A stretch of 50,319 nucleotides of DNA from a virus. Its lineage: Duplodnaviria; Caudoviricetes. The stretch is from positions 1-50,319 of the IMG/VR virus record IMGVR_UViG_3300046780_000444; one strand, 5' to 3'. The notes beneath the pieces were generated by a model. It was not told where the DNA came from and searched no databases. It worked only from the letters and a program-made list of their open reading frames with translations. Positions 865 to 46,552 of the stretch are shown piece after piece. The position numbers and the translations under genes are program-made. How positions within the stretch are numbered: the first letter of the stretch is position 1; each line of letters opens with the position of its first letter.

Positions 865-1030
865 ACGGGGAAGCTTGTATCAGCCCGGGTAATCCATCAT
901 ATTTGTTTCCGGCACTGGCTGTCCCGTCCTCTGGCGGACGGCGAGTTCCTTCTTCGCGGTTGGGGTGGTGCCCGGCCGCGGGGTGTCTAGGTTTTTGCGG
1001 TTTGTGTCGCAGCAACGCAAAGCGAGAAGG
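865..1030. ncRNA. Putative structured RNA/leader element upstream of primase (copy 1)
   Basis: Hairpins GCTGTCC..GGACGGC and CGCGGTTGGG-GTGGTG-CCCGGCCGCG have compensatory counterparts in the right-hand copy. Confidence 0.4.
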
Positions 1031-1034
1031 CGCG

Positions 1035-1262
1035 CTAACCCCGACGGGCTGGCGCGCCTTTTAGCTTCATGTGGCGGCGGATCATCGCGGTTGACCGACG
1101 ATTGCGCGTGCATCGAAATTCGATGCGCCCGCGCTTCACCCGGAAATCGAAATTATGGACGAGGCCGCAGTCGCAGCACGCCATCTTATAGCCGCGACGG
1201 ATTGGCCGCACCCAACGCGACCACCCATCATCGCCCGCAACCTCCTTTATAAAACCAGTCAC
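1035..1262 (-). CDS. Small Cys/His protein (CCDCGLVH), putative zinc-binding
   Basis: GTG start 1262 with purine-rich SD; WVRPIRRGYKMACCDCGLVHNFDFRV; conserved in the right-hand copy. Confidence 0.65.
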   Translation of the reverse strand: MTGFIKEVAGDDGWSRWVRPIRRGYKMACCDCGLVHNFDFRVKRGRIEFRCTRNRRSTAMIRRHMKLKGAPARRG

Positions 1263-1288
1263 GGCGTTCCCTTGCTCCTTCTGCCATG

Positions 1289-1432
1289 TCACGGCCGCTT
1301 CGCGCGCTTGCGCTGGGCTGACGGCTTCTTCGGCGAGAAGAAGCACTCCTTGATGAGAAAAGCGATTGCGCCGATGACGAGGGTGGCGATGAAAAGCCCG
1401 AAAGTCGGCCCGGCTGTCTCGTACCCGTGCAT
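1289..1432 (-). CDS. Small single-pass membrane protein (47 aa)
   Basis: SD AGGAGG before ATG 1432; MHGYETAGPTFGLFIATLVIGAIAFLIKECFFSPKKPSAQRKRAKRP is a hydrophobic helix plus basic tail; not in ORF track. Confidence 0.55.
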   Translation of the reverse strand: MHGYETAGPTFGLFIATLVIGAIAFLIKECFFSPKKPSAQRKRAKRP

Positions 1433-1440
1433 GATGCCTC

Positions 1441-2541
1441 CTATAGGTTGATGACGCTGCGCAGGTGGTCCGGCGTCAGGTGTAGATAATATTTCTCGAT
1501 GGTCTCGATCTTGTCCCCCATCACCTTCGCGATGTCATACAAGCTCGCGCCCTTCATCGCCTTGAGGCTTCCCCAGGTGTGGCGCAGCACATGCGGCGTC
1601 ACCCACGGCGTCTTGCTGGCTTCGACGAAAGCGGCCAAGGGCTTGCTGATGTCGGTCATGCCGACCACTTTGCCCGCGCCGGTACCGCCGTTGCCCCGCT
1701 TATGCGCCGCCTGATGCGCGGCGACGAGCACCGGCATAAGACGATCCGAGATCGGCACACGCACACGGCGCTTCTTCGTGATGCGCTTGCCCGGCACGCG
1801 GTAATCGATTTGCTTCAAGCCCAGATCGACGCGGTCCCAGGTGAGATCGAGGATCGCCTCGCGGCGGGCGGCGGTCTCCAAGCCCAGCGCGATGAACAGC
1901 TTGATGCGCTCGTCGGGCCATGCCATGGCTTGGTCCCAGAGCGCTTGCTCTTGCTTGGTATCGAGGAACTTATCCCGCGGCGGGCCGTCTTGCGGCAGCA
2001 CGCTTTCATCGATCGAAGGCATGTCGTCGCGCGAGAACAGCTTTTGCTTGCCCGCCCAGATGAGAACCGTTCTAAGGGCGCCAAGCTCGCGCCGCACCGT
2101 GCCGCTCTTGACCGGCCGTTGCTGCATATAAGCTTGCAGCGTTTGCGCGTCGATCTGCCCCGGCGTCAGATGCCCCAGCTCGCGCCGCACCGGGACCAGC
2201 ACATAGCCGCCGGTCTTGTCCTTGCCTTGCAGCGCGACATGGTTGAGCCAGCGCTGGCATAGCGCGTCGACGGTCGGCGCTTGCGCTACTTTTGCGGCGG
2301 TTTGCGCGTGTTTGAGGTTTCCGACGAAACCGGCCAGATAAGCTCTAGCCTCGTCCTCGATCTTCGTGCGGCAGCTTTCGCGTTTGGTGAGGTAACTCCC
2401 GCCGGTCCCGTCCCCTTGAAGGACCCCCCGGCGTTCGGTCCACCAGATTTCGTAATATCCTTGTCGGTTGGCCTTGAGCCGGATCTTGCGATAGGAGCCG
2501 ATATCGACGGCATCGAGCGTATGGTTCTGTGGTGCAGCCAT
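1441..2541 (-). CDS. int: Tyrosine recombinase / phage integrase
   Basis: Catalytic motifs TAARREAILDL (R), TKK (K), PHVLRHTWGS (HxxR), VMGD, IEKYYLH (Y). Confidence 0.93.
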   Translation of the reverse strand: MAAPQNHTLDAVDIGSYRKIRLKANRQGYYEIWWTERRGVLQGDGTGGSYLTKRESCRTKIEDEARAYLAGFVGNLKHAQTAAKVAQAPTVDALCQRWLNHVALQGKDKTGGYVLVPVRRELGHLTPGQIDAQTLQAYMQQRPVKSGTVRRELGALRTVLIWAGKQKLFSRDDMPSIDESVLPQDGPPRDKFLDTKQEQALWDQAMAWPDERIKLFIALGLETAARREAILDLTWDRVDLGLKQIDYRVPGKRITKKRRVRVPISDRLMPVLVAAHQAAHKRGNGGTGAGKVVGMTDISKPLAAFVEASKTPWVTPHVLRHTWGSLKAMKGASLYDIAKVMGDKIETIEKYYLHLTPDHLRSVINL

Positions 2542-2678
2542 CTCAAAAATTCTTCCTCTGGAATAAGCACGGGCCGTCCCGGCAACCAGGGCAGCCCCGC
2601 GGTGTATCGCAGCCTTGTGATCTTGGCGACGGAGCAGCGCAGCATAAGCGCGGCTTCGTCTTGGGTGATGTACTTCAT
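2286..2678 (-). CDS. xis: Excisionase-like HTH protein
   Basis: MKYITQDEAALMLRCSVAKITRLR...GLPWLPGRPVLIPEEEFLRWL is the HTH_17/Xis pattern; immediately upstream of int; ORF tail overlaps int by about 256 nt. Confidence 0.75.
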   Translation of the reverse strand: MKYITQDEAALMLRCSVAKITRLRYTAGLPWLPGRPVLIPEEEFLRWLHHRTIRSMPSISAPIARSGSRPTDKDITKSGGPNAGGSFKGTGPAGVTSPNAKAAARRSRTRLELIWPVSSETSNTRKPPQK

Positions 2679-2679
2679 C

Positions 2680-2883
2680 TCATGAAAGGTTGAAGACGCG
2701 CTTCAATTTCTCGCTGTCCGCCGCCTCCCGCGCTTTTTCCTCATGGAGCAGCATTTGGTTAATTTGGATTGCTAGTTCTACGCTGATCATGCGATCGCAT
2801 TGAAAGCGGGCCAAGCCCGTATCCAAGGTGATCTGAAGGAGGCCCGGGGCTTTCTCTTGTCTTTGCATTTGGGTGCGCTTCAT
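2680..2883 (-). CDS. 67-aa stand-alone paralog of the repressor C-terminal domain
   Basis: ATG overlaps the repressor stop (TGATG); PGLLQITLDTGLARFQCDRMISVELAIQINQML aligns with repressor PGVVHITLSPGLLGLARFQCDRMISPELAIEFQHML. Confidence 0.75.
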   Translation of the reverse strand: MKRTQMQRQEKAPGLLQITLDTGLARFQCDRMISVELAIQINQMLLHEEKAREAADSEKLKRVFNLS

Positions 2884-3677
2884 CAATCGCCCCCGCCACG
2901 GCCGCCGACAATCGAGCCTACTTTGTGCGCTTTGTGCGGCGGATCGCCATTGCCATTGTTCTTGTCTACCGAGCCGCCCGCTTGTTTTTTCTCGTCCTCG
3001 GCGAGCATGTGCTGGAACTCGATTGCGAGTTCCGGGCTGATCATGCGGTCGCATTGAAAGCGCGCCAGCCCCAGCAGTCCTGGGGATAAGGTTATGTGTA
3101 CCACGCCGGGGGCGAGGGCGGTGCGGGATGCGCCCGGCTCTACGCGGGCCGGACTGAGCTGGGTCTGCGGTGCGCCGCTCGGCGGCCGCTCGATCGCCAG
3201 GGTCTCGACCGGAACGCCGAGCACATCGGCAAGCTTTTTGAGGTTTATTTCGCCCGGGTAGCTGGTCCCGGCGAGATAATGCCCGATGCGGTCCCGGTTG
3301 CGCGCGACGCTGTAGCCGCGGCTGTCGGTGTTGCTGCCCCAGGTCCGTCTTGCGACTTCGGAAGGGGAGAGATCACGTTCACGCATGAGGGCGTTCAGCT
3401 TTTCAGCGAACGCTTGATACTCAGGCCGAGGCTGAGGTCGATATCTTGTTGTGTGTCGCCTCGTGCGCGCATAATGTTGTGTCTCCCGTTTGCGGCTGTC
3501 CTGCGGGGGAGGTTCTTGCTGTGTTCGTTCGGCTTGGGAGATGTCATTCTGATGAAACACAACGTCTAAGTCTAGCGCTGATTTGTTGTCAGGGGCGTTA
3601 TAATTCCCTATATCAGACTTAGTATCAGGCTTAGTGTCGGTCTTGGTGTCGGCCTTAGTGTCGCGATGCCGGATCAT
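2883..3677 (-). CDS. XRE-family HTH immunity repressor (CI-like, no S24 peptidase domain seen)
   Basis: FAEKLNALMRERDLSPSEVARR...RIGHYLAGTSYPGEINLKKLADVLGVPVETL; start moved to ATG 3677 (SD TAAGGAG); divergent from a cro-like gene. Confidence 0.8.
   Translation of the reverse strand: MIRHRDTKADTKTDTKPDTKSDIGNYNAPDNKSALDLDVVFHQNDISQAERTQQEPPPQDSRKRETQHYARTRRHTTRYRPQPRPEYQAFAEKLNALMRERDLSPSEVARRTWGSNTDSRGYSVARNRDRIGHYLAGTSYPGEINLKKLADVLGVPVETLAIERPPSGAPQTQLSPARVEPGASRTALAPGVVHITLSPGLLGLARFQCDRMISPELAIEFQHMLAEDEKKQAGGSVDKNNGNGDPPHKAHKVGSIVGGRGGGD
3614..3663 (-). repeat. 12-bp tandem repeat encoding DTKx (about 4 copies)
   Basis: GACACTAAGGCC GACACCAAGACC GACACTAAGCCT GATACTAAGTCT on the minus strand. 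Confidence 0.8.
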
Positions 3678-3869
3678 AACAAGCTCCTTAAAGCCTACTT
3701 CGGTTTTGTAATGTGGCGTACCGAGCGGTGTAGGCAGATCGGGTATAGCCCTGATTAGAGATAAACACAACAACTTGTTAAGGGCTGGTGTCAAGCACTA
3801 GTGCGCACAAAGCGGCCGCGACTAGAGCGAGCCTTAGTGCTGAAACCGCGGCAAAGGGGTGTCGAAGTC

Positions 3870-4109
3870 ATGGTTGTTATAGATGTCCAGCATGTTTTTC
3901 GCGTCTGCGGCGGTCCTCGCGGATTGCTGGACGCACTAGACGAGTACCAGCCTGGTCATGGACTAGCTTACGCGACCGTTCAGATGTGGAGCGTGCGGCA
4001 CCAGATCCCGAGCCGCTATATCGGCGCGGTCTTGTATTGCCTTGAGCGCGATGGTCATCGTTGCAGCGAATTTCTAGTCGACCAGGACGAGTTCGAGAAA
4101 AGCCTTTAG
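3870..4109 (+). CDS. Cro-like HTH regulator
   Basis: CGGPRGLLDAL...LAYATVQMWSVRHQIPSRY resembles Cro/YdaS; divergent from the repressor; ATG 3870 preferred. Confidence 0.7.
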   Translation: MVVIDVQHVFRVCGGPRGLLDALDEYQPGHGLAYATVQMWSVRHQIPSRYIGAVLYCLERDGHRCSEFLVDQDEFEKSL

Positions 4110-4122
4110 GCATGCGCACATT

Positions 4123-4611
4123 ATGCGCATCCTAGGGATCGATCCTGGCGCGACCGGAGCCTTTGCCCTTTATGACACCAGCCTTGAAGCGCTGTGGGTT
4201 GATGACATGCCGAGCGCGCGGGTCCTTGTCGGCAAAGCCAAGCGCTTGCAGCTCAACGAGGTCGCGCTGGCGCAGGCGATCGCGTCCGGCGAGCCTGACG
4301 TTGCCTGGATCGAGCGCGTCCATGCGCTGCCCAAGCAAGGCGTGACCAGCTCGTTCTCGTTCGGTCTCGCTTACGGCATCGTGCGCGGCATTCTCGCCAG
4401 CACGGGCGTCCCGTACTTTTTAATTACGCCCCAGGAATGGAAGCGCTCTTTCCGTCTAGGACCAGATAAGAGCGAGGCCCGGCTGGTGGCGTCGAGAATG
4501 TTCCCGGCCAACGTCGCCAGCTTCGCTCGCGCCAAGGATGACGGCCGCGCCGAGGCTGCTTTGCTCGCGCTTTTTGGCTCGCAGCAGCAGAGTGGGCTTA
4601 GTATCACTTAG
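4123..4611 (+). CDS. RuvC-like Holliday junction resolvase
   Basis: MRILGIDPGATGAFA, WIERV, SSFSFGLAYG, PQEWK, DDGRAEAALLA. Confidence 0.88.
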   Translation: MRILGIDPGATGAFALYDTSLEALWVDDMPSARVLVGKAKRLQLNEVALAQAIASGEPDVAWIERVHALPKQGVTSSFSFGLAYGIVRGILASTGVPYFLITPQEWKRSFRLGPDKSEARLVASRMFPANVASFARAKDDGRAEAALLALFGSQQQSGLSIT

Positions 4612-13682: not shown

Positions 13683-16600
13683 CTAGTGGTGCTGCGGATG
13701 CTCCGGCGCGGGCTGGTCGACGAAGGGCGCGCGGGCTTGCGCCGCCTTGTGGACACCATAGCCGAGCCCGGCGGCGACGCCGAGCGCTTTGACCGGCCAG
13801 GGCAAGCCCGACGCGTAACGCGCGACCGGCGCCGCGCCATAGCGCGCGGCCGGGACGGCGATGTCGTCGGCGATGCCCCAGCCAAAGCCAGCGCCGCCGG
13901 GGCCGACGCCGGGACCGCTGCCGTCGCGGCCGCCGGAGCCGGTATCGGCGTTCTCTTTCGCCATCTCGTCGAGCGATTTGAGCCCCGCGGTCTTGCGCTC
14001 GTCGTCGAGCGATTTGAGCCCGCCCTCGCCGGTATCGGGGGGCGCTGCCTTGGTCCCTTTGGGGCCGCCCGCCAGGTACGTAGCCGCGACGTTCGCGGCG
14101 TGCGGCGAGGTCCCGAGCTGCAGCGCTGCCCCGGCGGCGACGCGCGTGATGGGGCCGCCGACGGTGCCGAGCGCGGTCAGCCCATAAGCGGCGAGCGGCA
14201 CGCCGATCAGGTTGAAGGCGCCGCGCCACGCATTGTAGAGCCGCGTATTGGTGTCGGTCTCGGGACCAATGAAGCCCTGCACGATGGCATTCATGTTCGA
14301 CAGCGCCCAGGTCAACGAAGGACCGTTGATCAGCGAGGCGATATCGGCGTTGTAGCGAAGATGGGTAGCGACCTGGACCAGCGGATCGAGGGGCCCGTTG
14401 AGACCCGAACGCCCAAACCCAAGGTTGAGCAGATAGCTGGGAAGATCGCCGTCTTCGAGATGCTGCTTGACCTGGTCCGGGGCAAAGAGCAGCTGCCGCA
14501 CGGTCGACGCCATGACGTTCGCGCCGACGATGGCCCCCACCGCCATCCCGGTGTGGATGCTGGTCCCGGCGGCGCCGAACGCGCCGCGGCCCAGCGCGCC
14601 GATCGTGCCGCGGCCGGCGTCGAGCGCCTCTTGCTGCGAGCGCCCGAAATCGTGCTTGATGCGCTCCATCGTCGGCATCAGCACGTTGCGGTTGAACTGG
14701 TAATTAAACGACATCAGCTGGAACATGAGGCCGATGATCGGTCTCGACGCGCCGATCGCGCGGTCGACCTTGTAAGGATCCTGGATCGAGCGGTCGACCA
14801 GCCGCCGGATCGCCAGCCCATAGGTGCTGCGCATCGGATCGTTCTCGATGGCGCGCGCATTGGGAGCGGTGTCGTGCTGCAGGAGCCAGTCGGCAAACTC
14901 GGGATGGCCGCCGCCCGCGACGCCCAGCTCGTTGAACCAGCGCGCCGCGTCCTCGCGCGCGTGCTTGGCATGGGTGCTGATCTCGGTGCTGGTGTAGTCC
15001 CGCGCCAGCTTGGTCAGGAACCAGTGATTGGCCCCCATGCTCGCGACGCGCTGCGCGTTGGTCAGCCAGGTCAGGCCCGAGACCCGATAGTATTTCGTCA
15101 TGAAGCGCTGGATGTTGGGGCTGTCGCTGTAATCGGCGCCCATGCGCGACAGCATCACGCTGTCATGCATCGGCGTCGTGATCACGTTGAGGAATTGCGC
15201 CAGCTCGGTGCGCTCGCGCGCCGATGCGCTTCTCGTCAGCGCCTCCATCTGAAGGGCGAAAGACTTGAAGCCGGTGCGCATGTCGCCGGTGGCGAGCGCC
15301 GCATTCATCGGCTCGGCCCATGACGCCCACATCGCGCGCGGCATCAGCGCGATCGAGCCGAGCGCGTGCGCGATCTGGTGCAGCGATTGCAGCTGGCTGC
15401 TGCCGCGCTCCTGATTGCGCCCCATGACGTTGTTCGCCATCTCGCGAAAGAGATTGGCGTCGGCATCGCTCACGCCCTCGGCTTTCGCCATTCTGAGCTG
15501 CTGTTCGAGCAGCTTGCCGTCGGCGCCGAACAGATTGGCTTGCGCGACGCGGCGCGCGACGCCGTCGAAATAATGCGGCAGCGCCACGGCGGGGTCGGTC
15601 CACATCCAGTCGCGCATGATGCGATCGGCTTCCGGCGGGAGAACGCGCGCGTTGAGGAAGCGACCGGAAGGGCCGCTCTTGTCGAAGCTGGTCGGCTCGC
15701 CCGACGTCATCCGGTTGCGCCAGTCATCGGCGTTCAGCTCGGCAAGATGCTCGCTCAGCTTGGGATGCAGCGTTGTCGCGAGATCGGTGGCATCGCGCTG
15801 CAGCTGCTTTAGCTCGGCCTGCTCGACGGGTGTCCTGGGACCACCGGCAGCCTCGATCTCGCGTTGACGCGCGAGGTTCCTGCCGAGCGCGGCGAAGGGG
15901 GCGCGCAGCTGAGCACCGCCCGTCAGGCGCTTGTCCTCGGCCTTGACGCCGTTGCTCCACTTCTCGAACAGCGCTTCGGGATTGCTGCCCGCTGGTCCCA
16001 GCTCCTGGTCGAACATGAGCTGGTGTAGTTCCTTGGCCGATGCGTGAAACCCATTGCCGTCGGCCATGATCTTCGCGAGGTCGTAGACCCGCGGGAAATA
16101 GCCGCTTTTGGCGAAGCCGATATCGAGCCCGGCCTTGCGCGACATCGCCCAGGCTTCGTTGAGCAGGTCGCGCATGTTGCCCGCGGCGGCGAGGATATTG
16201 CCCGGGATCGGCTTGGTCCCGGCGGCCGGGTTGTTGGGATCGATCGGAAAGTCCGGCGTGCCGACGGTCAGCACATGATGCAGCATCTGGCTTTCCTCGA
16301 TGCTCATCTTGCCGGGGACGAGACCGCTCGCTTGCATGATGTTGCCCATGCGGCGCGTGAACTCGCGCCCGACATTGCGGACCCGTTCCTCGAAATTCTC
16401 GACGGTGTAGCGGCCCTCGCCGGGTGCTGAGGCCAGGCTATCGAGGATGCTCTGCAGGTAGGCTCTGGCCTTCTCGGGCGAGCGCTCGATGATCGCCTTC
16501 ATGAAGCCGTGCGATGAGCCCATATGCGCGCGGAACACCTTGTCCTGGATGCGGGTGACGAGGCTCTGGGGGTTCTTCGGCCGGGTCTTGTCCCGCGGGT

Positions 16601-19600
16601 CCAGCTCCTTCAAGACGCGGCTCTGGAAATCGATCGCGCGCGCGATGCCTCTGCCCACCGGCGTCTTCATCGCGTTGGGCGCGGTCACGGGCCAGTGATG
16701 CTTATCGGACTTGCCGTAATCGGTCCAATCACCGGGCGGCTTGCCGTTGTTAAAGATCTGCTCGTTGGCGATCGCCTCGTTGAGGTCGTCCAGCGCCTTG
16801 AAGATCTGCGCGCGGTCGTCCTCTTTGGGGTAGATCATCTTGAGGATCTTGACGTTTTCTTCGAGGTAGGCCGCATTCGGCATGACGATGCCGCGGGGGT
16901 CTTGTCCCGCCTGCTCCATCTTTTCCGACATATGCGCCTCGCCCGCGCGCGCCATCATCTCGTGCGCGCTGGCGAAGTAGCGCACCCCTTTGGGCCGCGG
17001 GTCGTAGCTCGCGCTCTGCTCGCGGTACTTGCTGAGCTGGATCGGCAGCTTGGTGCCGCCCTTGTCGAGCAATTCCAGCTCGCGCTGCGCGTCCCGGGCG
17101 GCTTTGGTCGGGTTGCCCTTGGCGTCGATCTCTTGCGCCTTGTTCTCCAAGCCGAGCCGCGCCGCGACCAGGGCGGGCTTGTCGAAGAACATCGTGTTGA
17201 TGAGCCGCGCGAACGCGCCTTCGACCGGATCCTTCGGCCGCAGCTCGCCGCCGCGCGCGTATTGCGTCAAGAGCCGGTTCATGACGCTGGGGTTGCCGGT
17301 CAGCCGCTCCGACAGCGCGTGGTCCCGCGCATGGATCCACTCGTGACCGAAGCTGTTGGCTCCGGCCATGACCTCGATCTCGCCGCTGCGCCGCCCCAGC
17401 CGATAGAGCCCGTAATAGGGCCGCTTGCCTTGCGGGACCAAGGTCAGCGACAGCTTGCCGTTGAGGCTGGCCTGCTCCGGCGGCAGGTTGAGCGCCTTCA
17501 TGCCGTCGTGCATGGCCCGCACCATGTCGAGCATCGCTTGCTGCGCGATATGCCGGTCGACTGGCGACGGGTTATCCGAGCCTTCCTTCCCGCCTTCAAG
17601 GCGCACGTCCTTGAAGCCGAATTTGTCCTTCAGGTGCTGCAGGATGATGTTGTTCTGGCGCTCGATCGGCAGGCTCGCCGCCGTGTCGGGATCGATGGGC
17701 TTGCCGGTCTTCTTGTCGGTTACGTCTTTGAAGATCGAGCGCCAGACGCTGGTCCCGTCGTTGAAATGGTAATCGTCCGTGGTCCGCGCGCGGTTGACCG
17801 GGAGCGGCCCGATGAACGGCTCCTTGATGCCGCCCTGACGCTCGCCCTTGCCGGGGGTCATGCCGCGCATCCGCCCGATCTGGGCGCTGACCTTGGTGAG
17901 CTTGTTCTGTAGCTGGACCAGCTCCGCGGGCTTGCCGCGCGCCTGATCGAGTTTTGCCGTCAGCGCATCGCGGGTGGCCGTGAGCTTGGAAAGCTGAGCT
18001 TGCGCCTCTTTGGTGCCGCCGAGCGGCGCGGCCGCGATATCGGGGTGGGGCTCCGGCGCGTTGGGATCGCCGTAGAGCGCGTGCTGCCGGTTCGCCTCTG
18101 CAGCTGAGTGCTCGGCTGCGAGGTCGCTCTGCAGCTTTGCCTGCTGATCCTTGAAGCCCTGGATCGTGTCGCGGTGCGCGAGCAGCTTTGCGGATGGCTT
18201 GATCGCTTGGTTCTTGCGCGCGGCCATCTTCCGCTCGACCGCTTCGGCTTTGGCGATCTTCTCGTTGATCTGATCGAGCTGCGCCTGCCGGATGGCGACG
18301 CGGCCCCCGGTGCGCTGCTGGATCGCGTCGCGCTGCTGGTGGAGATCCTGCATCTCCCGGGTCTGCTCGGGCGTGCGGTCTTGGCCGAGCGCTTCGAGCT
18401 TATCGAGGCGCGCGCCGATGCTCTCGGGGTGAGGATTGGTCCCGTCGTATTTGGGACCAGGCTCAGCGCCGGGACCAGGCTCAGCGCCGGGACCAGCGCC
18501 GGGACCAGGCTCAGCGCTGGGACCAGCTTCTCGACCAGGCGGGACCACTTCAGCGCCTGGTCCCAGCTCATGGTCCCCTTTAGCGGGCTCCTTAGGGTGT
18601 TCATCCGTGCCAATTGCCACGGGCTTCGTGCCAATTGCCTCGGGGCCAGGGGCCGTAATTGGCTCGGATTTCGGCCCCTCGGCATTACGCCGGTTAAGGC
18701 GTTCTTCGGCAAGGGCGCGCGCCTGCTCCGGGGTATCCCCGACCGCCACCACATGCCCTTGCTCGTTCTTGGCGACGTATTGGCCTGGGACTTCGTGATC
18801 GGCCTCGATCTTCAGCGCCTCGGAGCGGATCGCGGGACCTTTGGGGGCGGGACCTTCGGTAGCCCCTACGCGGGGGGCGGCTCCTTCGGCTGGCGCAGAA
18901 GCGCCCTTAGCTCCTTGATCTCCGCGCGCGCCATCTCCCTGATCTCCGGGGCTGACACCGCGTCCGAGTTCCGGCCGCTGAACTCCTTCAGCAGGCGCCG
19001 CGCCTGGCGCAGCCTCTGGACCGGGTCGTCCGGGAGCGGTACGAGTGAGGTCATCGGCGGGCGTTCTAGCCCCTTCAGATGGAGGTGTCGATGGTGCACG
19101 AGGTTCAGCCCCTGGGACCCCTGCTGTTTCACGGGGAGCGCCTGCTGGGGGCGTTGGCGGAAGCTCCCCTGTCGGCATGGGACGCCCCGGTGCTTGGGGC
19201 TCTGGCGGCGGTGCTGGTGTCGCTCCGGCAGGCTCTATACTCGGAGACGTTTCCGACGGCCGGGGGACCGCGCTGGGCTCGGCCGTCACTGGCGCAGGTG
19301 TCGCGGGCGCAGCTTCTCCTGCACCGGCTGGCGGGGCACCTTCGGCGCTGGCTGGACGAGGCTCCGGCTGATCCGGCTGCGGCGCAGCAGCGCCAGGAAC
19401 GGCAATCGCGATGGGCACTGGCATCGTCTCAGGTCGAGGCGCTGGCGGTGCAGCCGCTGGCGGGGCTTCGATCGGCGGTGCCGCAGTCCCGGGCATAACC
19501 CGCTCCTGCGGGAGCGGTGGACTGCCGAACTGGCTCGGCTGCGGGCTGTTGATGTCCATGCCTTGCGGGGAGCCCGGAAGCGGCAACCGCTCAGGTCCGG

Positions 19601-20630
19601 TCGTGGTCAGGCCGCTGGCGCCGGGCGCCTTGATCGCGGCTTCTCTTTCCACGTCAGCGGGTGACTGGAACTTGCCGGGCGGGGCAAAGGGCGCGGGCTC
19701 GCGCTTGAGGGCGCCATGCGCCCCGGCAAAGCCAGCGCCGGTGATGGCGCTTTGCGAAGCTTGCTCCAAGACATCCCCCAGCGAGGGCGGCTTCTCGCCC
19801 AGCGCCAGGGGCACGCCGACCTGCGTGGCCGCGCCCGAGACGGCCTGCGCGCCCGCCTGAAAGAGCATTTTGCTGATGATGTTCTTGAGCGGAATGCCGA
19901 TCCAGGGCGCGGCCTCGAACAAGGGCGCCGTCGCCGCGACGATCGCGCTGGTGGCCGCGGCGTGCTTCCAGGCGTAAGCGACGGCGTCGTCGTGGCTCAG
20001 TCCTTGAGCGCTCGCCTGCAGGAAGGCGGGCTTCAAATCGTAGGCCAGGGACGTCAAGCCCATGCCACCGGCGCCGCCTATGGCGGCACCGATGGGCCCA
20101 CCCACCGCAAAGCCCGCGCCCGCGCCGCCTAAGCCAGCCGCCAGCATCGGGCCCGAGCCGCCGATGCCCTGGCCGAGCTGGTGCATATAGCTCTGCTCGG
20201 GCTCCGGCTGCGCGCCTGGGGCTGGCGGCGTAAAGATATTCCCCGTCGCGATGTTCTTGGTCTCTTGCACGCTTCCGGTGAAGCCGGAGCCGACCCCGCT
20301 GAAGAAGCCGGTCTCTTTGGACGGCGCCGCCGCGGGGTCGGTGCTCTGGTCCTGACTTGCTGGCGCAGACGCAGGCGCTTTTAGGATGGCATAGCCATTG
20401 GCGTCGACCAGGGGGACTGAAGCAGGCGCATCTGCAAGCGCGACAGACGACGTTGATGCAGGCGCAGGCGCGGGCGCAGGCGTCGCTTTTAGGATGGCAT
20501 AACCATTGGCGTCGACCAGGGGGACTGAAGCCGCCGCAGGCGTTGGCGCAGGCGCAGGCGCAGGCGCAGGCGTTTTTAGGATGGCATAGCCGTTGGCATC
20601 GATGAGAGGCACACCGCCGCTATCGGGCAT
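13683..20630 (-). CDS. Giant internal virion/ejection protein (~2315 aa) with zincin HExxH and LPD1-like region
   Basis: Start moved to ATG 20630 (MPDSGG); Gly/Ala hydrophobic segments; SFGHEWIHARDH and YFASAHEMMARAGE motifs; last gene of virion operon. Confidence 0.8.
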   Translation of the reverse strand: MPDSGGVPLIDANGYAILKTPAPAPAPAPTPAAASVPLVDANGYAILKATPAPAPAPASTSSVALADAPASVPLVDANGYAILKAPASAPASQDQSTDPAAAPSKETGFFSGVGSGFTGSVQETKNIATGNIFTPPAPGAQPEPEQSYMHQLGQGIGGSGPMLAAGLGGAGAGFAVGGPIGAAIGGAGGMGLTSLAYDLKPAFLQASAQGLSHDDAVAYAWKHAAATSAIVAATAPLFEAAPWIGIPLKNIISKMLFQAGAQAVSGAATQVGVPLALGEKPPSLGDVLEQASQSAITGAGFAGAHGALKREPAPFAPPGKFQSPADVEREAAIKAPGASGLTTTGPERLPLPGSPQGMDINSPQPSQFGSPPLPQERVMPGTAAPPIEAPPAAAPPAPRPETMPVPIAIAVPGAAAPQPDQPEPRPASAEGAPPAGAGEAAPATPAPVTAEPSAVPRPSETSPSIEPAGATPAPPPEPQAPGRPMPTGELPPTPPAGAPRETAGVPGAEPRAPSTPPSEGARTPADDLTRTAPGRPGPEAAPGAAPAEGVQRPELGRGVSPGDQGDGARGDQGAKGASAPAEGAAPRVGATEGPAPKGPAIRSEALKIEADHEVPGQYVAKNEQGHVVAVGDTPEQARALAEERLNRRNAEGPKSEPITAPGPEAIGTKPVAIGTDEHPKEPAKGDHELGPGAEVVPPGREAGPSAEPGPGAGPGAEPGPGAEPGPKYDGTNPHPESIGARLDKLEALGQDRTPEQTREMQDLHQQRDAIQQRTGGRVAIRQAQLDQINEKIAKAEAVERKMAARKNQAIKPSAKLLAHRDTIQGFKDQQAKLQSDLAAEHSAAEANRQHALYGDPNAPEPHPDIAAAPLGGTKEAQAQLSKLTATRDALTAKLDQARGKPAELVQLQNKLTKVSAQIGRMRGMTPGKGERQGGIKEPFIGPLPVNRARTTDDYHFNDGTSVWRSIFKDVTDKKTGKPIDPDTAASLPIERQNNIILQHLKDKFGFKDVRLEGGKEGSDNPSPVDRHIAQQAMLDMVRAMHDGMKALNLPPEQASLNGKLSLTLVPQGKRPYYGLYRLGRRSGEIEVMAGANSFGHEWIHARDHALSERLTGNPSVMNRLLTQYARGGELRPKDPVEGAFARLINTMFFDKPALVAARLGLENKAQEIDAKGNPTKAARDAQRELELLDKGGTKLPIQLSKYREQSASYDPRPKGVRYFASAHEMMARAGEAHMSEKMEQAGQDPRGIVMPNAAYLEENVKILKMIYPKEDDRAQIFKALDDLNEAIANEQIFNNGKPPGDWTDYGKSDKHHWPVTAPNAMKTPVGRGIARAIDFQSRVLKELDPRDKTRPKNPQSLVTRIQDKVFRAHMGSSHGFMKAIIERSPEKARAYLQSILDSLASAPGEGRYTVENFEERVRNVGREFTRRMGNIMQASGLVPGKMSIEESQMLHHVLTVGTPDFPIDPNNPAAGTKPIPGNILAAAGNMRDLLNEAWAMSRKAGLDIGFAKSGYFPRVYDLAKIMADGNGFHASAKELHQLMFDQELGPAGSNPEALFEKWSNGVKAEDKRLTGGAQLRAPFAALGRNLARQREIEAAGGPRTPVEQAELKQLQRDATDLATTLHPKLSEHLAELNADDWRNRMTSGEPTSFDKSGPSGRFLNARVLPPEADRIMRDWMWTDPAVALPHYFDGVARRVAQANLFGADGKLLEQQLRMAKAEGVSDADANLFREMANNVMGRNQERGSSQLQSLHQIAHALGSIALMPRAMWASWAEPMNAALATGDMRTGFKSFALQMEALTRSASARERTELAQFLNVITTPMHDSVMLSRMGADYSDSPNIQRFMTKYYRVSGLTWLTNAQRVASMGANHWFLTKLARDYTSTEISTHAKHAREDAARWFNELGVAGGGHPEFADWLLQHDTAPNARAIENDPMRSTYGLAIRRLVDRSIQDPYKVDRAIGASRPIIGLMFQLMSFNYQFNRNVLMPTMERIKHDFGRSQQEALDAGRGTIGALGRGAFGAAGTSIHTGMAVGAIVGANVMASTVRQLLFAPDQVKQHLEDGDLPSYLLNLGFGRSGLNGPLDPLVQVATHLRYNADIASLINGPSLTWALSNMNAIVQGFIGPETDTNTRLYNAWRGAFNLIGVPLAAYGLTALGTVGGPITRVAAGAALQLGTSPHAANVAATYLAGGPKGTKAAPPDTGEGGLKSLDDERKTAGLKSLDEMAKENADTGSGGRDGSGPGVGPGGAGFGWGIADDIAVPAARYGAAPVARYASGLPWPVKALGVAAGLGYGVHKAAQARAPFVDQPAPEHPQHH
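18453..18525 (-). repeat. Intragenic (GAE)PGP tandem repeats
   Basis: GGGACCAGGCTCAGCGCC 18-bp units plus a 12-bp variant. Confidence 0.8.
20378..20612 (-). repeat. Three copies of VPL(I/V)DANGYAILK separated by Pro/Ala linkers
   Basis: TTTTAGGATGGCATA(G/A)CC(A/G)TTGGC repeated at about 20378, 20486 and 20574. Confidence 0.9.
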
Positions 20631-20635
20631 GGATC

Positions 20636-21199
20636 TCAGCCCCCCAGCCGCCGGGCCAGCATGAGCTGCGCCCCCGGCATCAGCGGCACGCGCATAGGCG
20701 TGGCGGGCCCAGGCTCGGGAATGGCCTGGGACAAGGCGCCCATGCCGGGCGGGCTCCACGCGCTCTCTCGCATCGCGGCGAAGGCTCGTGGATCCATGCT
20801 TGGCGCGGCAAGGGCGGCCGGAGTTGCAGCGGGCGGCTGCGGAATTGAGACCGGGGCGTCTTGGGTCGCTCCCGATAGCGCTGGTCCGGGACCAGTCTGC
20901 TGCCCTTGGTTGCCCGATAGATACGCCGACAACCTTGGATTGCAGCCGGGGCAAGTCCAGTCGCCGAGCCCTCGCTTCGATACCGCTTGGGCAAAGACCT
21001 GGTCCTGGACCTCGGGCGGCGCCGATGCCGCCGTCGGATACTGCCCGGTATCGACGCCGATTTGCGAGGCGTACTGCCGCCAGGTCGGCGTGATGAACTG
21101 ATACGCGCCCGACGCCGACGTATTCGGGTTCTGCGCGCCGTAATCGCCGCCGCTCTCGAAGCGCTTAACGACGGCGGCCATGTCGGCGACGGAAGCCAT
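20636..21199 (-). CDS. Virion-associated lytic transglycosylase (Rpf/lysozyme-like)
   Basis: FESGGDY...N...ASGAYQFITPTW...AASAPPEVQD...GLGDWTC. Confidence 0.8.
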   Translation of the reverse strand: MASVADMAAVVKRFESGGDYGAQNPNTSASGAYQFITPTWRQYASQIGVDTGQYPTAASAPPEVQDQVFAQAVSKRGLGDWTCPGCNPRLSAYLSGNQGQQTGPGPALSGATQDAPVSIPQPPAATPAALAAPSMDPRAFAAMRESAWSPPGMGALSQAIPEPGPATPMRVPLMPGAQLMLARRLGG

Positions 21200-42718: not shown

Positions 42719-43163
42719 ACCACCATGCCGTTGTTGAGCGGCGGCCGGGCGCCGCTGCTAGATCGATCGCTTGCCGCTGCACTTGGGACCAATGCAACGG
42801 CGCCGTGAAGCGCCTGTCCCATGCCAGGACAAGCGCCAAGCGCTGCGGCGCGCGCTTGCTTGTCTCAATTCCGTTCAAGTTTCGCCAGACAGGCAATGCC
42901 AGCAATTCAAGCGGCAGCAAGCCTGCCGTTTCGAGCCTCGCCAGCATGCGAGTTTCGCCCCGACCATATGCAGCCGACTGTCGGGACAACCGGCCGCTAT
43001 GCCGGACGCAATGCTTTTGCCCCTTCAACGCAAGTTGAGTGCAGCGCTTGCACTTGGGTTGCTGATCGATCGGGATCTGACAGCGCAGCAATGCCGCAAT
43101 GCTGTTCGGCGAGCCTCGCCAGCCACCGACCCTTTTCACTTCACCTAGCTGCACTTGTCGCAT
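42705..43163 (-). CDS. HGGxSTG-like zinc-finger protein
   Basis: CKRCTQLALKGQKHCVRHSG; such proteins commonly lie next to terS. Confidence 0.5.
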   Translation of the reverse strand: MRQVQLGEVKRVGGWRGSPNSIAALLRCQIPIDQQPKCKRCTQLALKGQKHCVRHSGRLSRQSAAYGRGETRMLARLETAGLLPLELLALPVWRNLNGIETSKRAPQRLALVLAWDRRFTAPLHWSQVQRQAIDLAAAPGRRSTTAWWYENR

Positions 43164-43179
43164 TGGTCCCGCTTTTCGC

Positions 43180-43208
43180 TTGTCTTGGTTGTGTCTTGCG
43201 ATTATACC
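43180..43208 (+). promoter_or_regulatory. Putative promoter of AAA-vWA operon
   Basis: TTGTCT-N17-TATACC with GTTGTGTC (43188-43195) in the spacer. Confidence 0.5.
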
Positions 43209-43266
43209 TTTTGTTGCGACACCTAACCACACCAACCTACACCAAGCGAAAGAAGGAACTAAATCA

Positions 43267-44697
43267 GTGGCTTATCCATCTCACATTGCGCGCGCGGCAT
43301 TGCGCCGTGCGCTTCGCGACAGCAAGGGTGACGTTACAGGCGTGCTTCATGGCCGTCTTGTGAACGATCTCACGATCGCTGAATTGAATGCTGCGCTTAT
43401 CGCGCTAGGGCAAGACCCCGACGCGATCGCGCGCGCTGCACTCAATCCGCTTTACGCTCCAATGCAAGCGCAAGCGATCGAGGCTCCTGCGATCGAGGAC
43501 GAGCCGCAAGCGGTCGAGGCTCCTGCGATCGAGAACGAGCCGACGCCCGACGAAGACCCTCACGGTGATGCGGCCGCGATCGAAGCTGAGATGCAATCGA
43601 TCCGAGGCTTGATCGCAACGGGCGGGTTCAGCGCTTTCGACGATAAGCTTCGCGCGCTTGTCATCGAAGCACGCAAGCCTGCGGTGGAAATACGCGTTGA
43701 AGTGCCGATCGATGGCGGCGGCACCGCAATCGCGCATGCGAGCAAACCCACAGGCAAGCATGCAACGTGGCGCGCGCTGTTCGGTATCACCGGACCGCTT
43801 GGCAAGCGCGAGACTGCGTTGTGGGACGGCATGCATCCTCACACTCCTGCGATCGATGATCGCTATGCGTGGCCTGCCTGCACCGCTGCGGTCCTCACTC
43901 AAATCGCGCGCGGGAAGAACATCATGCTCTTTGGTCCTGCAGGGACGGGCAAGACGCAATTCATGGCTCAGCTTGCAGCACGCACCGGCCGTCCCTATGC
44001 GCTCATAAGCTGCGACAACGGGACCGAAGCGGCCGCGCTGAAAGGCATGACCGTACCCGATGCAAGCGGAGGCGTGACATGGCAGGACGGGCAATTGACG
44101 CGCGCCATCAAGACGCCCGGATGCATCATATGCCTGGACGAGCCGAGCGTTGCGCGCTCTGGCGCGCTGTTCGTCCTGCAAAATGTGCTGGAGGATCGCA
44201 AGCTGTTTCTTGATGAGACAGGCGAGCGAGTGACAGTCGCGCCCAGCGTGATTTTTGCCGCAACCGACAACACCAACGGGACAGGCGGAGGGAGCCGCAA
44301 AGGCTACACCGACACCAATCGTCTTAATCACGCGTTCCTCGATCGCTTGAGCGTACGCGTGAAGTTCGATTATATGTCCCCCGACAGCGAGGCGCGCGTA
44401 ATCGTGGCGAAAACAGGTTGCACGCTCGCACTGGCAAGCTTGCTGGTATCCGCTGCGACTGTGACACGCGCCGCAGCCAACGATGCGACGCTATCGCATG
44501 GCATTGGGCTTCGACGCCTGTTCGCATGGGCCGAATTGCTGACCGATGGCATTGGCGCGGCCGATGCTTTTGAAATGGCAATTCTGAATTGCGCCGCCGA
44601 GCAAGACGTTGAAGCCCTGCGCGAACAATGCTTGCTTGCTTACGACGCTGGCAACGTGAAGCGCGCGCTCGAAGCCGTTGCGCAAGGGGGGAACTGA
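43267..44697 (+). CDS. MoxR/CobS-like AAA+ ATPase
   Basis: Walker A GPAGTGKT, Walker B ICLDEP, AATDNTNGTG, LNHAFLDR; GTG 43267 after AAGGA. Confidence 0.88.
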   Translation: MAYPSHIARAALRRALRDSKGDVTGVLHGRLVNDLTIAELNAALIALGQDPDAIARAALNPLYAPMQAQAIEAPAIEDEPQAVEAPAIENEPTPDEDPHGDAAAIEAEMQSIRGLIATGGFSAFDDKLRALVIEARKPAVEIRVEVPIDGGGTAIAHASKPTGKHATWRALFGITGPLGKRETALWDGMHPHTPAIDDRYAWPACTAAVLTQIARGKNIMLFGPAGTGKTQFMAQLAARTGRPYALISCDNGTEAAALKGMTVPDASGGVTWQDGQLTRAIKTPGCIICLDEPSVARSGALFVLQNVLEDRKLFLDETGERVTVAPSVIFAATDNTNGTGGGSRKGYTDTNRLNHAFLDRLSVRVKFDYMSPDSEARVIVAKTGCTLALASLLVSAATVTRAAANDATLSHGIGLRRLFAWAELLTDGIGAADAFEMAILNCAAEQDVEALREQCLLAYDAGNVKRALEAVAQGGN

Positions 44698-44701
44698 ACC
44701 C

Positions 44702-46552
44702 ATGCCGCGCTACATCGAAGTAACTGCAGCCGCGCGTGAGACAGCCACCAAGCTGCTCGCGTTGCGCAGCGCCAATGCGCACAAGGTTGCCATCACGACG
44801 CGCGGCGGAAAAACCGCCTCCGTTGATTGGTCCAGCAACCATGCGACTATCAACATGCCGAGCCTTCCGCCCGACGCGTCATTGACGCGTGCAGAAGCGG
44901 ATCGCTTGGTGGCTTTCATCGCGCATGAATGCTGCCACGTCCTGCACTCGGATCGAAGCCAGTGGCAGCGCGCATGCGCTGCAGGCGCACGCGTGCAAGC
45001 TTGGACCAACGCACTGGAAGATGTGCGGATCGAAGCACGCGAAATCAAAGCCGGGAACTTTCCAGCTTTGCGCACCGTGCTTTCAAGCATGGCCAACCAC
45101 CTGCACTATGAAGCCATGACAGCGGCCGCAACGCATGGCCGCATCATTGGCGCAAGCGTTGCGGATGCCCCTTATGTCGCATGCATCCTGGGGCGCGTTG
45201 CCAATGGCTATGCGATACCCGCAAGCGAGAACCTTGCTGCAAGCTTGAGCCCGCAAACCCGCAAGCTTGTTGACCATGCGCTGGCACGCATCGGCCGTTG
45301 CAAGAACACTTCGGACGTTGTGGAGCTTGCGCTTGAACTTGTCGCGATGGAGCAAGCGCTGCAGCCGCAAGGCAAGCCCAACGCTCAGGGCGATGACAGC
45401 GCTCGGGGCAAGGGCGATGATGCGAGCAAGCCCGATGCAAGCAAGGGCGATGACAGCGCTCAGGGCGATGACAGCGCTCAGGGCGATGACAGCGCTCAGG
45501 GCGATGACAGCGCTCAGGGCGACGAGGCTCAGGGCGACGAGGCTCAGGGCGACGAGGCTCAGGGCGACGAGGCTCAGGGCGATACCAGGCCCGGAGATGG
45601 TTCCGGCAATGAGATTGCTTCGGACGTCGATCTTACGGACGCAATCGATGCAATCGCCAAGCGCGCGGGCATTGCCGATCTAAACGAGCACAACGTGACT
45701 GATAAAAGCTATCTCCTGCCAACCCTCGCCACCAAGGTCACGCAAGCATGGCAAGGGCATGCCAACGGCAATAGAGGCAGCGCAGACATGCTCGCCGAGC
45801 GCATGCCGCGCAATTCGGTCCTGCATGGTCAAATCGCGCGCTTGCTTGTCACCGACGAGCAACGCCGTGTCACGCACCATGAAAGCAGCGGCAGGCTCGA
45901 TCGGCGCGCGCTTGCCCGCATGCGGACTGGTGCGACCGATGTCTATTCGCGCCGCTCCGACACGCCCGGGATCGATACCGCGCTGTTGATCCTCATCGAT
46001 GCATCCTCATCGATGCGGCTTTCGACGCCGAGCGGCCATACCCGCATGCAACTTGCCCAGACCACCGCATGGCACATTGGCCGCGCGGCGGAAAGCGCCA
46101 ATGCCAAGCTTGGCATTGCCAGCTTTCATTGGCGCGATGGTGTCACGGGGTCATCCTACACGGAGCTTGAAATGGTGAAGCCCTGGACCATGCCGATGGC
46201 CGCATGCGCTACGACCATTGCCGATATCGGCCCGGGCGGCCAAACCCCGCTTTCGCCTGCCATTGTCGAAGCAGCCAACATGCTCGCCGGGATCGATGCC
46301 TCGCGCCGTATCATCATGGTCCTGACCGATGGCGACTGCGATCTCGGCCCTGCGACCGTGACAGCCGCTTGTCGCTTGGCCGCAGCGCGAGGCGTCGAAA
46401 CCGTCGGTATCGGTCTTAACGCCCCGCGCGTCATTGCCGCTTTCCCCCCGCAGTACAGCGTCAACGTGGATGACCTAGCCCAACTATCGGCCAAGGGCTT
46501 AGGCGTTCTCGCCGACATGCTGGAGGACGCCAACCCTGTCGCAGCGGAATAG
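44702..46552 (+). CDS. CobT-like protein with HExxH N-domain, acidic linker and vWA domain
   Basis: AHECCHVLHS, NALEDVRIE, SGRLDRRAL, MIDAS LIDASSSM, GQTPL, MVLTDG, GIGL. Confidence 0.88.
   Translation: MPRYIEVTAAARETATKLLALRSANAHKVAITTRGGKTASVDWSSNHATINMPSLPPDASLTRAEADRLVAFIAHECCHVLHSDRSQWQRACAAGARVQAWTNALEDVRIEAREIKAGNFPALRTVLSSMANHLHYEAMTAAATHGRIIGASVADAPYVACILGRVANGYAIPASENLAASLSPQTRKLVDHALARIGRCKNTSDVVELALELVAMEQALQPQGKPNAQGDDSARGKGDDASKPDASKGDDSAQGDDSAQGDDSAQGDDSAQGDEAQGDEAQGDEAQGDEAQGDTRPGDGSGNEIASDVDLTDAIDAIAKRAGIADLNEHNVTDKSYLLPTLATKVTQAWQGHANGNRGSADMLAERMPRNSVLHGQIARLLVTDEQRRVTHHESSGRLDRRALARMRTGATDVYSRRSDTPGIDTALLILIDASSSMRLSTPSGHTRMQLAQTTAWHIGRAAESANAKLGIASFHWRDGVTGSSYTELEMVKPWTMPMAACATTIADIGPGGQTPLSPAIVEAANMLAGIDASRRIIMVLTDGDCDLGPATVTAACRLAAARGVETVGIGLNAPRVIAAFPPQYSVNVDDLAQLSAKGLGVLADMLEDANPVAAE
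45446..45583 (+). repeat. Tandem 18-bp (AQGDDS) and 15-bp (AQGDE) repeats in vWA linker
   Basis: GGGCGATGACAGCGCTCA x4 then GGGCGACGAGGCTCA x4. Confidence 0.92.

Follow-up and report, generated by a model that had tools for sequence, protein, structure and literature searches.

Several regulators of transcription are opposed by a small protein that mimics or binds their interaction region. In the TrlR/TraR system and in the plant microProteins, a duplicated interaction domain minus the DNA-binding domain poisons the oligomers of its parent. The domain shared by SinR and SinI is helical. SinI of Bacillus subtilis is described as a small protein, encoded next to SinR, that has no helix-turn-helix (HTH) and shares the interaction region of SinR, recognisably so in sequence, the heterodimer no longer binding DNA, and transcription of sinI is under Spo0A control (PMC3163267). 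In arbitrium phages of Bacillus, AimX is reported to bind the C-terminal oligomerisation domain of the XRE-like protein AimC, where it replaces the second subunit and blocks DNA binding; this placement is modelled, and its authors liken it to SinI/SinR (bioRxiv 10.1101/2025.11.23.689978). Hex of phage 434 is described as a small protein whose coding sequence begins where the repressor gene ends or directly beyond, which is made in lysogens from the PRM transcript of the repressor, and which modulates prophage stability (PMC3564112). Here we analyse IMG/VR virus record IMGVR_UViG_3300046780_000444, a stretch of 50,319 bp (referred to throughout as the window), in which the gene for an XRE-type phage repressor is directly followed by a small gene encoding a free-standing copy of the repressor's own C-terminal domain (CTD). 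We call the small protein the mini. The arrangement is real and well beyond chance, and it is plausible, from sequence, structural models and analogy, that the mini modulates the repressor.

An earlier reading of the window, made from the sequence only, had claimed that the repressor is followed by a copy of its own CTD, in a 67-amino-acid (aa) open reading frame (ORF) that lacks an HTH and overlaps the repressor gene as TGATG. All of this is borne out. The elements concerned are listed here, with the evidence for each.

2886-3677 (stop codon 2883-2885), minus strand: repressor gene, 264 aa (ORF and conserved start)
3198-3425, minus strand: DNA-binding HTH domain of the repressor, about aa 85-160 (AlphaFold2 (AF2) helices with per-residue confidence (pLDDT) >92; Foldseek)
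2982-3113, minus strand: core of the repressor CTD, aa 189-232, the putative parent of the duplicated domain (BLASTP, family alignment)
2680-2883 (stop codon 2680-2682), minus strand: the mini, a free-standing CTD paralogue (BLASTP, six-frame search, AF2)
2734-2818, no strand assigned: DNA repeat copy 1 of family D1, inside the mini
2988-3072, no strand assigned: DNA repeat copy 2 of family D1, inside the repressor CTD

The paralogy is seen in both protein and DNA. BLASTP of the repressor against the mini gives 28/55 identical residues (E 1e-14, for a single comparison), and a six-frame search of the 50-kb record with the mini protein finds only the mini itself and the repressor CTD (E 3.7e-12). 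The two D1 copies form a direct repeat of 85 nucleotides (nt) that is 74% identical. In its core (2782-2818 against 3036-3072, 12 codons, GLARFQCDRMIS) 33 of 37 bases are identical, and the four differences (GGC/GGG, TTG/CTG, GCC/GCG and GAT/GAC) are all synonymous; synonymous changes here had been noted in the sequence-only reading. In a tree of 11 CTD and mini cores (44-49 residues), both known minis, the second being from the related contig L004, group with the window-type repressor CTD with support of 82/86, which is below the strong mark of the tree method. The minis and the window-type CTD also share the residues ITL, other repressors having TTL or TTM, and together with the tree this suggests duplication of this lineage's own CTD. 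Judged from these comparisons, the most likely origin of the mini is a duplication of the 3' part of its own lineage's repressor gene, the copy having most likely been retained as a translated gene in its own right. The family matches include no full-length protein that has a mini-like CTD and could have been a donor. A word-indexed search for longer proteins with a mini-like domain gave 27 candidates with 0 at E <= 0.01; since this search also missed the repressor of the window itself, the evidence is weak.

The length of 67 aa is counted from the ATG that overlaps the repressor TGA. An alternative start, the ATG at 2868, would give a protein of 62 aa; it is conserved in L004 and in the database protein P0005, and the L004 gene has a GGAGG 8 nt before this conserved ATG. 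The mini frame is open upstream of its start. A programmed -1 frameshift joining the repressor and the mini was considered and is unlikely, there being no canonical slippery heptamer and the G-run not being conserved in L004. Pfam, PHROG and NCBIfam contain no family, HTH or other, that matches the mini. The parts specific to it are an 11-residue N-terminus, a shortened hairpin loop and a 17-residue tail, and it has no Asn/Gly-rich linker. MAFFT pairs the mini tail (...KLKRVFNLS) with the tail motif of the repressor (...KAHKVGSIV); as the conserved Gly of the family is not kept and no DNA similarity is seen, we treat the tail as unrelated or unclear.

AF2, given an 11-row alignment, predicts for the mini a β-hairpin (residues 15-21 and 26-32) followed by a helix (residues 35-63), with a mean pLDDT of 73 and about 85 in the core. 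Foldseek searches with this model gave 0/184 matches at E <= 0.001 in the PDB and 0 of at least 500 in BFVD, and the ESM Atlas gave no usable feature match, all structural rows being below the naming bar. A ribbon-helix-helix protein of the Arc/MetJ/CopG type was tried as a candidate and rejected: the AF2 model is strand-strand-helix, and five CTD and mini sequences have no Pfam match at E <= 10.

A profile made from 2 minis and 3 CTDs was searched against 1.84 billion representative proteins at E <= 0.001. It found 10 proteins, two of which (P0007 and P0013) were discounted as family members, being long repeat proteins matched in many short stretches. The 8 credible clusters comprise one free-standing protein (P0005, 63 aa) and seven metagenomic XRE repressors of 158-276 aa (P0006, P0008-P0012 and P0014), all with the same layout of HTH, linker, CTD and tail. 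The shared domain has no match in Pfam, PHROGs, NCBIfam or PDB sequences, the best PDB sequence match of the profile being at chance level (E 1.2). It is an orphan domain. The suggestion in the sequence-only reading that a conserved Cys might serve as a redox or metal sensor is not supported. Of nine repressor CTDs, three have Cys at this position, four Ala, one Ile and one Val, so that 6/9 have another residue; in the model the position is on the hydrophobic face of the second strand, and the variation suits a small hydrophobic residue buried in the core rather than a sensor.

The open frame of the repressor spans 2883-3794 on the minus strand, and its end reads ...PGVVHITLSPGLLGLARFQCDRMISPELAIEFQHMLAEDEKK... 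The likely start is the ATG at 3677, which follows AAGGAG and is kept as the aligned start in L006 and L007. From its N-terminus, which is disordered, the protein continues through an XRE-type HTH and a linker to the CTD, and it ends in a Gly/Asn-rich tail; from the position of the gene (2886-3677) we infer that it is the immunity repressor. Its sequence matches are weak: HTH_31 scores 19.6 bits against a Pfam cut-off of 27 and HTH_3 18.5 against 23, both below cut-off, and transcriptional-regulator families in PHROG match with E 8e-4 to 5e-3. The AF2 model is clearer, having aa 1-80 disordered, aa 81-160 with pLDDT 92-97, and a C-terminal part of low confidence as a monomer. Foldseek aligns the HTH with C.AhdI, C.BclI, the 434 repressor and the N-terminal domain (NTD) of SinR with probability 1.00 and a root-mean-square deviation (rmsd) of 1.4-2.4 A over 72-79 columns. 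With target TM-scores of 0.75-0.92, the model is predicted to have the five-helix fold of lambda repressor; the lack of an HTH fold match at E <= 0.001 is due to the use of the whole 264-aa model as query. There is no Peptidase_S24 domain in the repressor at E <= 1 in Pfam or NCBIfam, as the sequence-only reading had claimed, and on this evidence the repressor does not appear to be of the autocleaving LexA/CI type.

Two further observations concern the repressor. Four 12-nt tandem repeats in its 5' coding region (3613-3662) give the disordered N-terminus a (DTKx)4 stretch; they are missing from L006 and L007, which makes them a lineage-specific in-frame expansion. L004 has a second XRE-type repressor paralogue of 196 aa (L004:2230-2820), just downstream of the integrase, which may belong to an adjacent element. 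The idea that it carries a diverged version of the mini/CTD domain was rejected (hhalign probability 0.3%).

Five related contigs (L003-L007) are found in IMG/VR, and a second scan using the full repressor alignment gave the same five. L003 is identical to the window. L004 has both the repressor and a mini, the latter 70-74% identical to the window mini. L005 and L006 (which are one sequence) and L007 have a repressor with a CTD and no mini, the repressor being coupled directly to the excisionase-like gene (xis); in L006 xis starts at a TTG that overlaps the repressor TGA. The mini is thus a clean indel of about 205 bp between the repressor and xis, present in 2/4 distinct lineages. A word-indexed search of 5.8 billion proteins gave only two free-standing clusters, P0002 (4 contigs) and P0005 (6 contigs). 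A one-genome-per-species scan found no further true relatives, L008 and L009 matching over 12-30 residues and being taken as chance. Scans of JGI metagenomes gave no relative among 114 candidate stretches in the first and 1 of 73 in the second (L010), unrelated by its ORFs, and GenBank phages gave 1 record, which matched in the HTH region only.

Parts of the locus are also present in contigs of soil and rhizosphere metagenome runs. The 24 runs listed include no RNA run and so say nothing on expression. Contigs of four other soil or rhizosphere runs (X2-X5) were compared across the locus. The window allele is found in X2, X3 and X4, and the L004-type allele (with a 3-nt insertion) in X2 and X5, so that both occur together in one soil run, X2 (records 6 and 7). 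Logan contigs bridge both junctions of the mini in X2 (records 5 and 7) and X4 (record 22), and the recurrence of the arrangement in L003 and in Logan contigs of other runs shows that it is not an assembly artefact. No contig among X2-X5 skips the mini, which is weak evidence since these runs were chosen for holding the stretch.

The window and L006 repressors (2886-3677 against L006:4500-5264) have a nearly identical HTH, while their CTDs are only 49% identical. Nucleotide identity to L006 is 74.7% in the repressor and 95.7% in xis and the integrase gene (int). These comparisons indicate that the immunity module is mosaic, and that the CTD and the mini helix are its variable, fast-changing parts.

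By sequence, then, the mini probably modulates the repressor. As to how, our tentative reading, whose chances we would put somewhat short of even, is that it joins the repressor in mixed oligomers, as a partner of the SinI or AimX kind; the basis for this is the paralogy, the predicted fold and precedent. A hairpin followed by an amphipathic helix is predicted for both the mini and the CTD, and such a unit normally needs a partner to complete its fold. The CTD would pair repressor subunits, allowing two HTH domains to bind operators, and the low confidence of the CTD when modelled as a monomer is as expected for a domain that folds on pairing. The mini would then pair with the repressor CTD through the conserved hairpin (...GLARFQCD...IS), giving mixed oligomers short of one HTH. 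Start/stop coupling on a shared mRNA would hold the mini at a fixed ratio to the repressor, as a titrator or cap, and titration would lower and sharpen the effective concentration of repressor, setting the threshold at which induction occurs or immunity holds. On this view the mini would inhibit the repressor rather than stabilise it. Comparison of the two mini alleles shows residues of the helix's hydrophobic seam either unchanged or exchanged for similar ones (L37, A38, I39, I41F, M44, L45I and A51), and most of the changes appear to be polar. A complex prediction for repressor aa 183-264 with the mini, both given as alignments, scored 0.29 and 0.28 against a mark of 0.32, in a comparison run without controls.

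Several observations weigh against a mixed oligomer. The sequence-only reading proposed that the gene pair be looked for in related phages, and there it is not a conserved design: L005/L006 and L007, two of the four lineages, couple the repressor straight to xis, which implies that the switch works without a mini. The repressor CTDs of the window and L004 are identical at 53/55 residues, yet their mini helices differ at 13/23; had the mini helix packed tightly against that of the resident CTD, it should have been held more constant, and no co-variation is seen. A nearly unchanged CTD facing a divergent helix implies either that the hairpin is the interface, or that the helix answers to something else. 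For the pair of mini alleles, the pN/pS ratio (the proportion of non-synonymous sites that differ over that of synonymous sites) ranges from 0.77 (62 codons) to 0.91 (67 codons), which differs from that of the neighbouring genes (Fisher p = 0.001) and is not distinguishable from neutrality (binomial p = 0.37). The integrity of the ORF is a weak argument, as 30 random substitutions leave an ORF of this size intact in 17-21% of trials. Searches of PDB, BFVD and the ESM Atlas give no structural or sequence relative of known function for the domain. Finally, an inhibitor co-expressed with its target from one mRNA is unlike SinI and AimX, which are regulated separately.

As to whether the mini is maintained by selection, as the sequence-only reading supposed, the sequence evidence for function is mixed. 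The neighbouring genes have pN/pS values of 0.15 (repressor), 0.21 (int) and 0.29 (xis), and only two mini alleles are known. Between them, 2 differences fall in the 25 hairpin codons, 25 in the 23 helix codons and 3 in the 14 tail codons. The hairpins match at 55/57 nt; the helix patches match at 44/69 nt, and each is 45-47/69 identical to the repressor CTD. In the helix codons there are 6.5 synonymous differences in 13.7 sites and 18.5 non-synonymous differences in 55.3 sites. That both kinds rise together in the helix patch indicates a recombined mosaic segment, and not point-mutational drift or adaptation, so that the pairwise pN/pS is a poor guide in either direction. Between the mini and the CTD, synonymous divergence (dS) is 1.3-3.0, which is saturated, and non-synonymous divergence (dN) 0.40-0.50. 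The window mini nevertheless keeps 16/19 of the positions conserved in at least 8 of 9 repressors and the L004 mini 13/19, where neutral simulation at the observed density of substitutions, or at half of it, retains a mean of 5.0 or 9.1 of the 19 (P <= 0.00015). The G+C content at the three codon positions (GC1/GC2/GC3 = 0.58/0.33/0.66) follows a coding-like pattern (GC3 > GC1 > GC2), the single indel between the alleles is 3 nt and in frame, and both alleles keep a usable start. The supposed maintenance is therefore borne out only in part, by the survival of family-conserved residues and not by the ratio between the alleles.

A neutral alternative is that the mini is the remnant of a partial tandem duplication or of recombination between repressor alleles, still open and perhaps translated, and of no benefit to the phage. 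A pN/pS not different from 1, the chance of 0.17-0.21 that the ORF would be intact anyway, the absence of the mini from two lineages with no sign of a replacement, the mosaic nature of the immunity regions and the tiny size of the family, to which three collection scans added no further alleles, would all fit. It is harder to see how a remnant would have kept 16 conserved positions while its synonymous sites became saturated, or its coding-like GC3, in-frame indel and usable starts in both alleles, with a canonical GGAGG in L004. Even the divergent helix patch retains an open frame and the look of the family, as though it had been swapped with that of a functional homologue, and no full-length donor with a mini-like CTD is among the matches. 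We consider a remnant rather unlikely. A different function is that of a protective decoy comparable to Hex, the mini being made alongside the repressor in lysogens and absorbing proteins that attack the repressor CTD (an antirepressor from this phage or a co-resident one, or an adaptor for a host protease), and so stabilising lysogeny. The slot directly downstream of the repressor is that of Hex in phage 434, where Hex is described as stabilising lysogens, although the account does not state that Hex is a repressor paralogue (PMC3564112). A CTD that is hypervariable next to a nearly identical HTH is what would be expected of a surface under attack, and the mini helix is likewise variable and mosaic; against this, no antirepressor or protease partner was identified among the part of the window genes that was scanned, and the mechanism is entirely inferential, which leaves a decoy improbable in our view.

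The mini might instead act outside its own lysogen, targeting the CTDs of repressors of related phages, which have HTH and operators in common with its own and differ in the CTD, and disturbing the immunity or lysogenisation of a rival. The contrast between HTH and CTD in the window and L006 repressors would suit this, as would the strong difference in helix between mini alleles that face the same resident CTD, and their co-occurrence in run X2. But the helix patch is no closer to the L006 and L007 CTDs (37-39/69 nt) than to its own (45-47/69), and expression would be from the lysogenic operon, where pushing an incoming phage into lysis would hurt the host. We regard this as very unlikely. Equally little weight is given to an independent small regulator, a hairpin-helix dimer that would bind DNA or the xis/int machinery as a cofactor in directionality or copy control, leaving the repressor alone. 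The mini does lie immediately before xis and int, with a spacing of 1 nt, and it has N- and C-terminal extensions of its own that are conserved between the alleles (MQRQEKA... and ...SEKLKRVFNL); yet it matches no ribbon-helix-helix or other DNA-binding family at E <= 10 and no fold at E <= 0.001, and relatives with near-identical xis/int (95.7% at the nt level) do without it. One further idea, decidedly speculative, is that the hairpin-helix CTD is a fast-evolving module of partner specificity in a small family of soil-phage repressors, and the mini a mobile cassette, its helix swapped by recombination, that acts between phages, either as a decoy guarding the resident repressor against antirepressors of rivals or as a poison subunit for the repressors of rivals. 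If true, this would make the mini a paralogue-derived weapon in prophage competition over immunity.

The setting of the pair is that of a lysogeny region, and the window is a complete-looking temperate phage from soil. CheckV calls it complete, its G+C content is 63.5%, and domain matches identify a large terminase, a polyvalent protein of 2,423 aa, DNA polymerase A, an SNF2 helicase, a D5-type primase and an integrase. On the minus strand the genes run in the order repressor, mini, excisionase-like HTH gene and tyrosine integrase, tightly packed, with 1 nt between the mini stop and the xis ATG. The genes around the pair are as follows.

2286-2678, minus strand: excisionase-like HTH_17 gene, xis (Pfam HTH_17 30.3 bits, cut-off 27; phrog_66 excisionase)
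1441-2541, minus strand: tyrosine integrase (Pfam Phage_integrase 39 bits, cut-off 27.1)
3801-4109, plus strand: divergent small ORF, cro-like by position only; likelier start is an ATG near 3870

The sequence-only reading placed the mini in a repressor-xis-int operon. The tightly packed string of genes agrees with this, and the operon itself is taken from spacing only, since a scan of 1000-4400 found 0 sigma-70-like promoters and no convincing minus-strand terminator between the repressor and int; terminator-like sites in the same region numbered 7, against 4.0 +/- 1.7 expected. The family match of xis is confined to aa 3-49, with TIGR01764 below its cut-off. The xis ORF reaches about 255 nt into the integrase gene in a different frame, and L004 and L006 have ORFs of 127-131 aa with an equivalent xis/integrase overlap; the long tail may be genuine coding sequence that overlaps the integrase, or an artefact of high G+C. 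The divergent ORF is conserved in L006 and has no Pfam family. Downstream of it are early genes of replication and recombination, with those for the SNF2 helicase, a DUF2800/PD-(D/E)XK protein, an Enc34-type single-stranded DNA-binding protein and DNA polymerase A.

Around the repressor start, the exact sequence CTTAGTG occurs three times within 210 bp (3630-3839), out of 4 copies in the 50-kb window, and two of these three sites fall in the tandem repeats. There is also a perfect 10-bp palindrome, GCACTAGTGC, at 3795-3804, in an intergenic region conserved with L006. From their sequence and placement, both are candidate operator elements. Elsewhere in the window, the ORF of 2,423 aa (13683-20954, minus strand) contains Large polyvalent protein-associated domain 1 (LPD1, E 5.9e-7), and at 43099-46552 on the plus strand a gene for a MoxR-like AAA+ ATPase, with AAA_5 and CbbQ_C above their Pfam cut-offs, is followed by one for a protein with a weak VWA match (VWA_2 24.5 bits, cut-off 27).

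Among the open-access papers searched, we found no account of a phage repressor with a paralogue of its own C-terminal domain encoded after it. If the mini does pair with the repressor, it would be a natural and recent phage example of a regulator that has evolved a dominant-negative or capping subunit by duplication of an interaction domain, with the states before (L006 and L007) and after (window and L004) both on hand for comparison. An orphan repressor CTD, without relatives in Pfam, PHROGs, NCBIfam or the PDB, would then gain a role as well, and the growing set of small phage proteins acting on the choice between lysis and lysogeny would be extended by a route based on paralogy. Practical value is limited, as the phages are uncultured and two alleles are known, and the principle is established in the published accounts of SinI/SinR (PMC3163267) and AimX/AimC (bioRxiv 10.1101/2025.11.23.689978), so that the 'new lysogeny switch' of the sequence-only reading was an overstatement.

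The closest likeness is to SinI/SinR. Here too a small protein without an HTH shares sequence with the C-terminal domain of an XRE-type repressor encoded by the adjoining gene, and the modelled repressor HTH superimposes on the SinR NTD (3qq6_B, rmsd 2.4 A over 79 columns; 3zkc_B, 1.8 A over 72). The domains themselves differ, that of the mini and CTD being predicted as a hairpin and one helix with no sequence relation in Pfam, NCBIfam or PDB; no SinI or SinR chain is among the matches listed for the mini model (the best 50 of 184 PDB fold matches). The order also differs, since here the repressor gene comes first, with a start/stop overlap that would give co-expression, and the pairing of the mini is a prediction from sequence. 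AimC, as described, is likewise an XRE-like repressor of phages, in which a flexible connector lies between the HTH and a C-terminal oligomerisation domain. AimX is presented in that account as mostly helical and controlled by arbitrium (AimR), and is not described there as a paralogue of the AimC domain; for the mini the paralogy is clear, and its gene is coupled to that of the repressor. The mini occupies a slot just after the repressor gene like that described for Hex; the repressor that Hex is described as protecting is autocleaving (RecA-sensitive), and the one here has no S24 domain. TrlR/TraR and the microProteins followed the same evolutionary route with different folds, organisms and regulation, and provide a conceptual precedent only. 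What sets the present pair apart from SinI/SinR, AimX/AimC and Hex is the combination of an orphan, predicted hairpin-helix fold, a clear paralogy with the parent repressor, and an apparent translational coupling to it.

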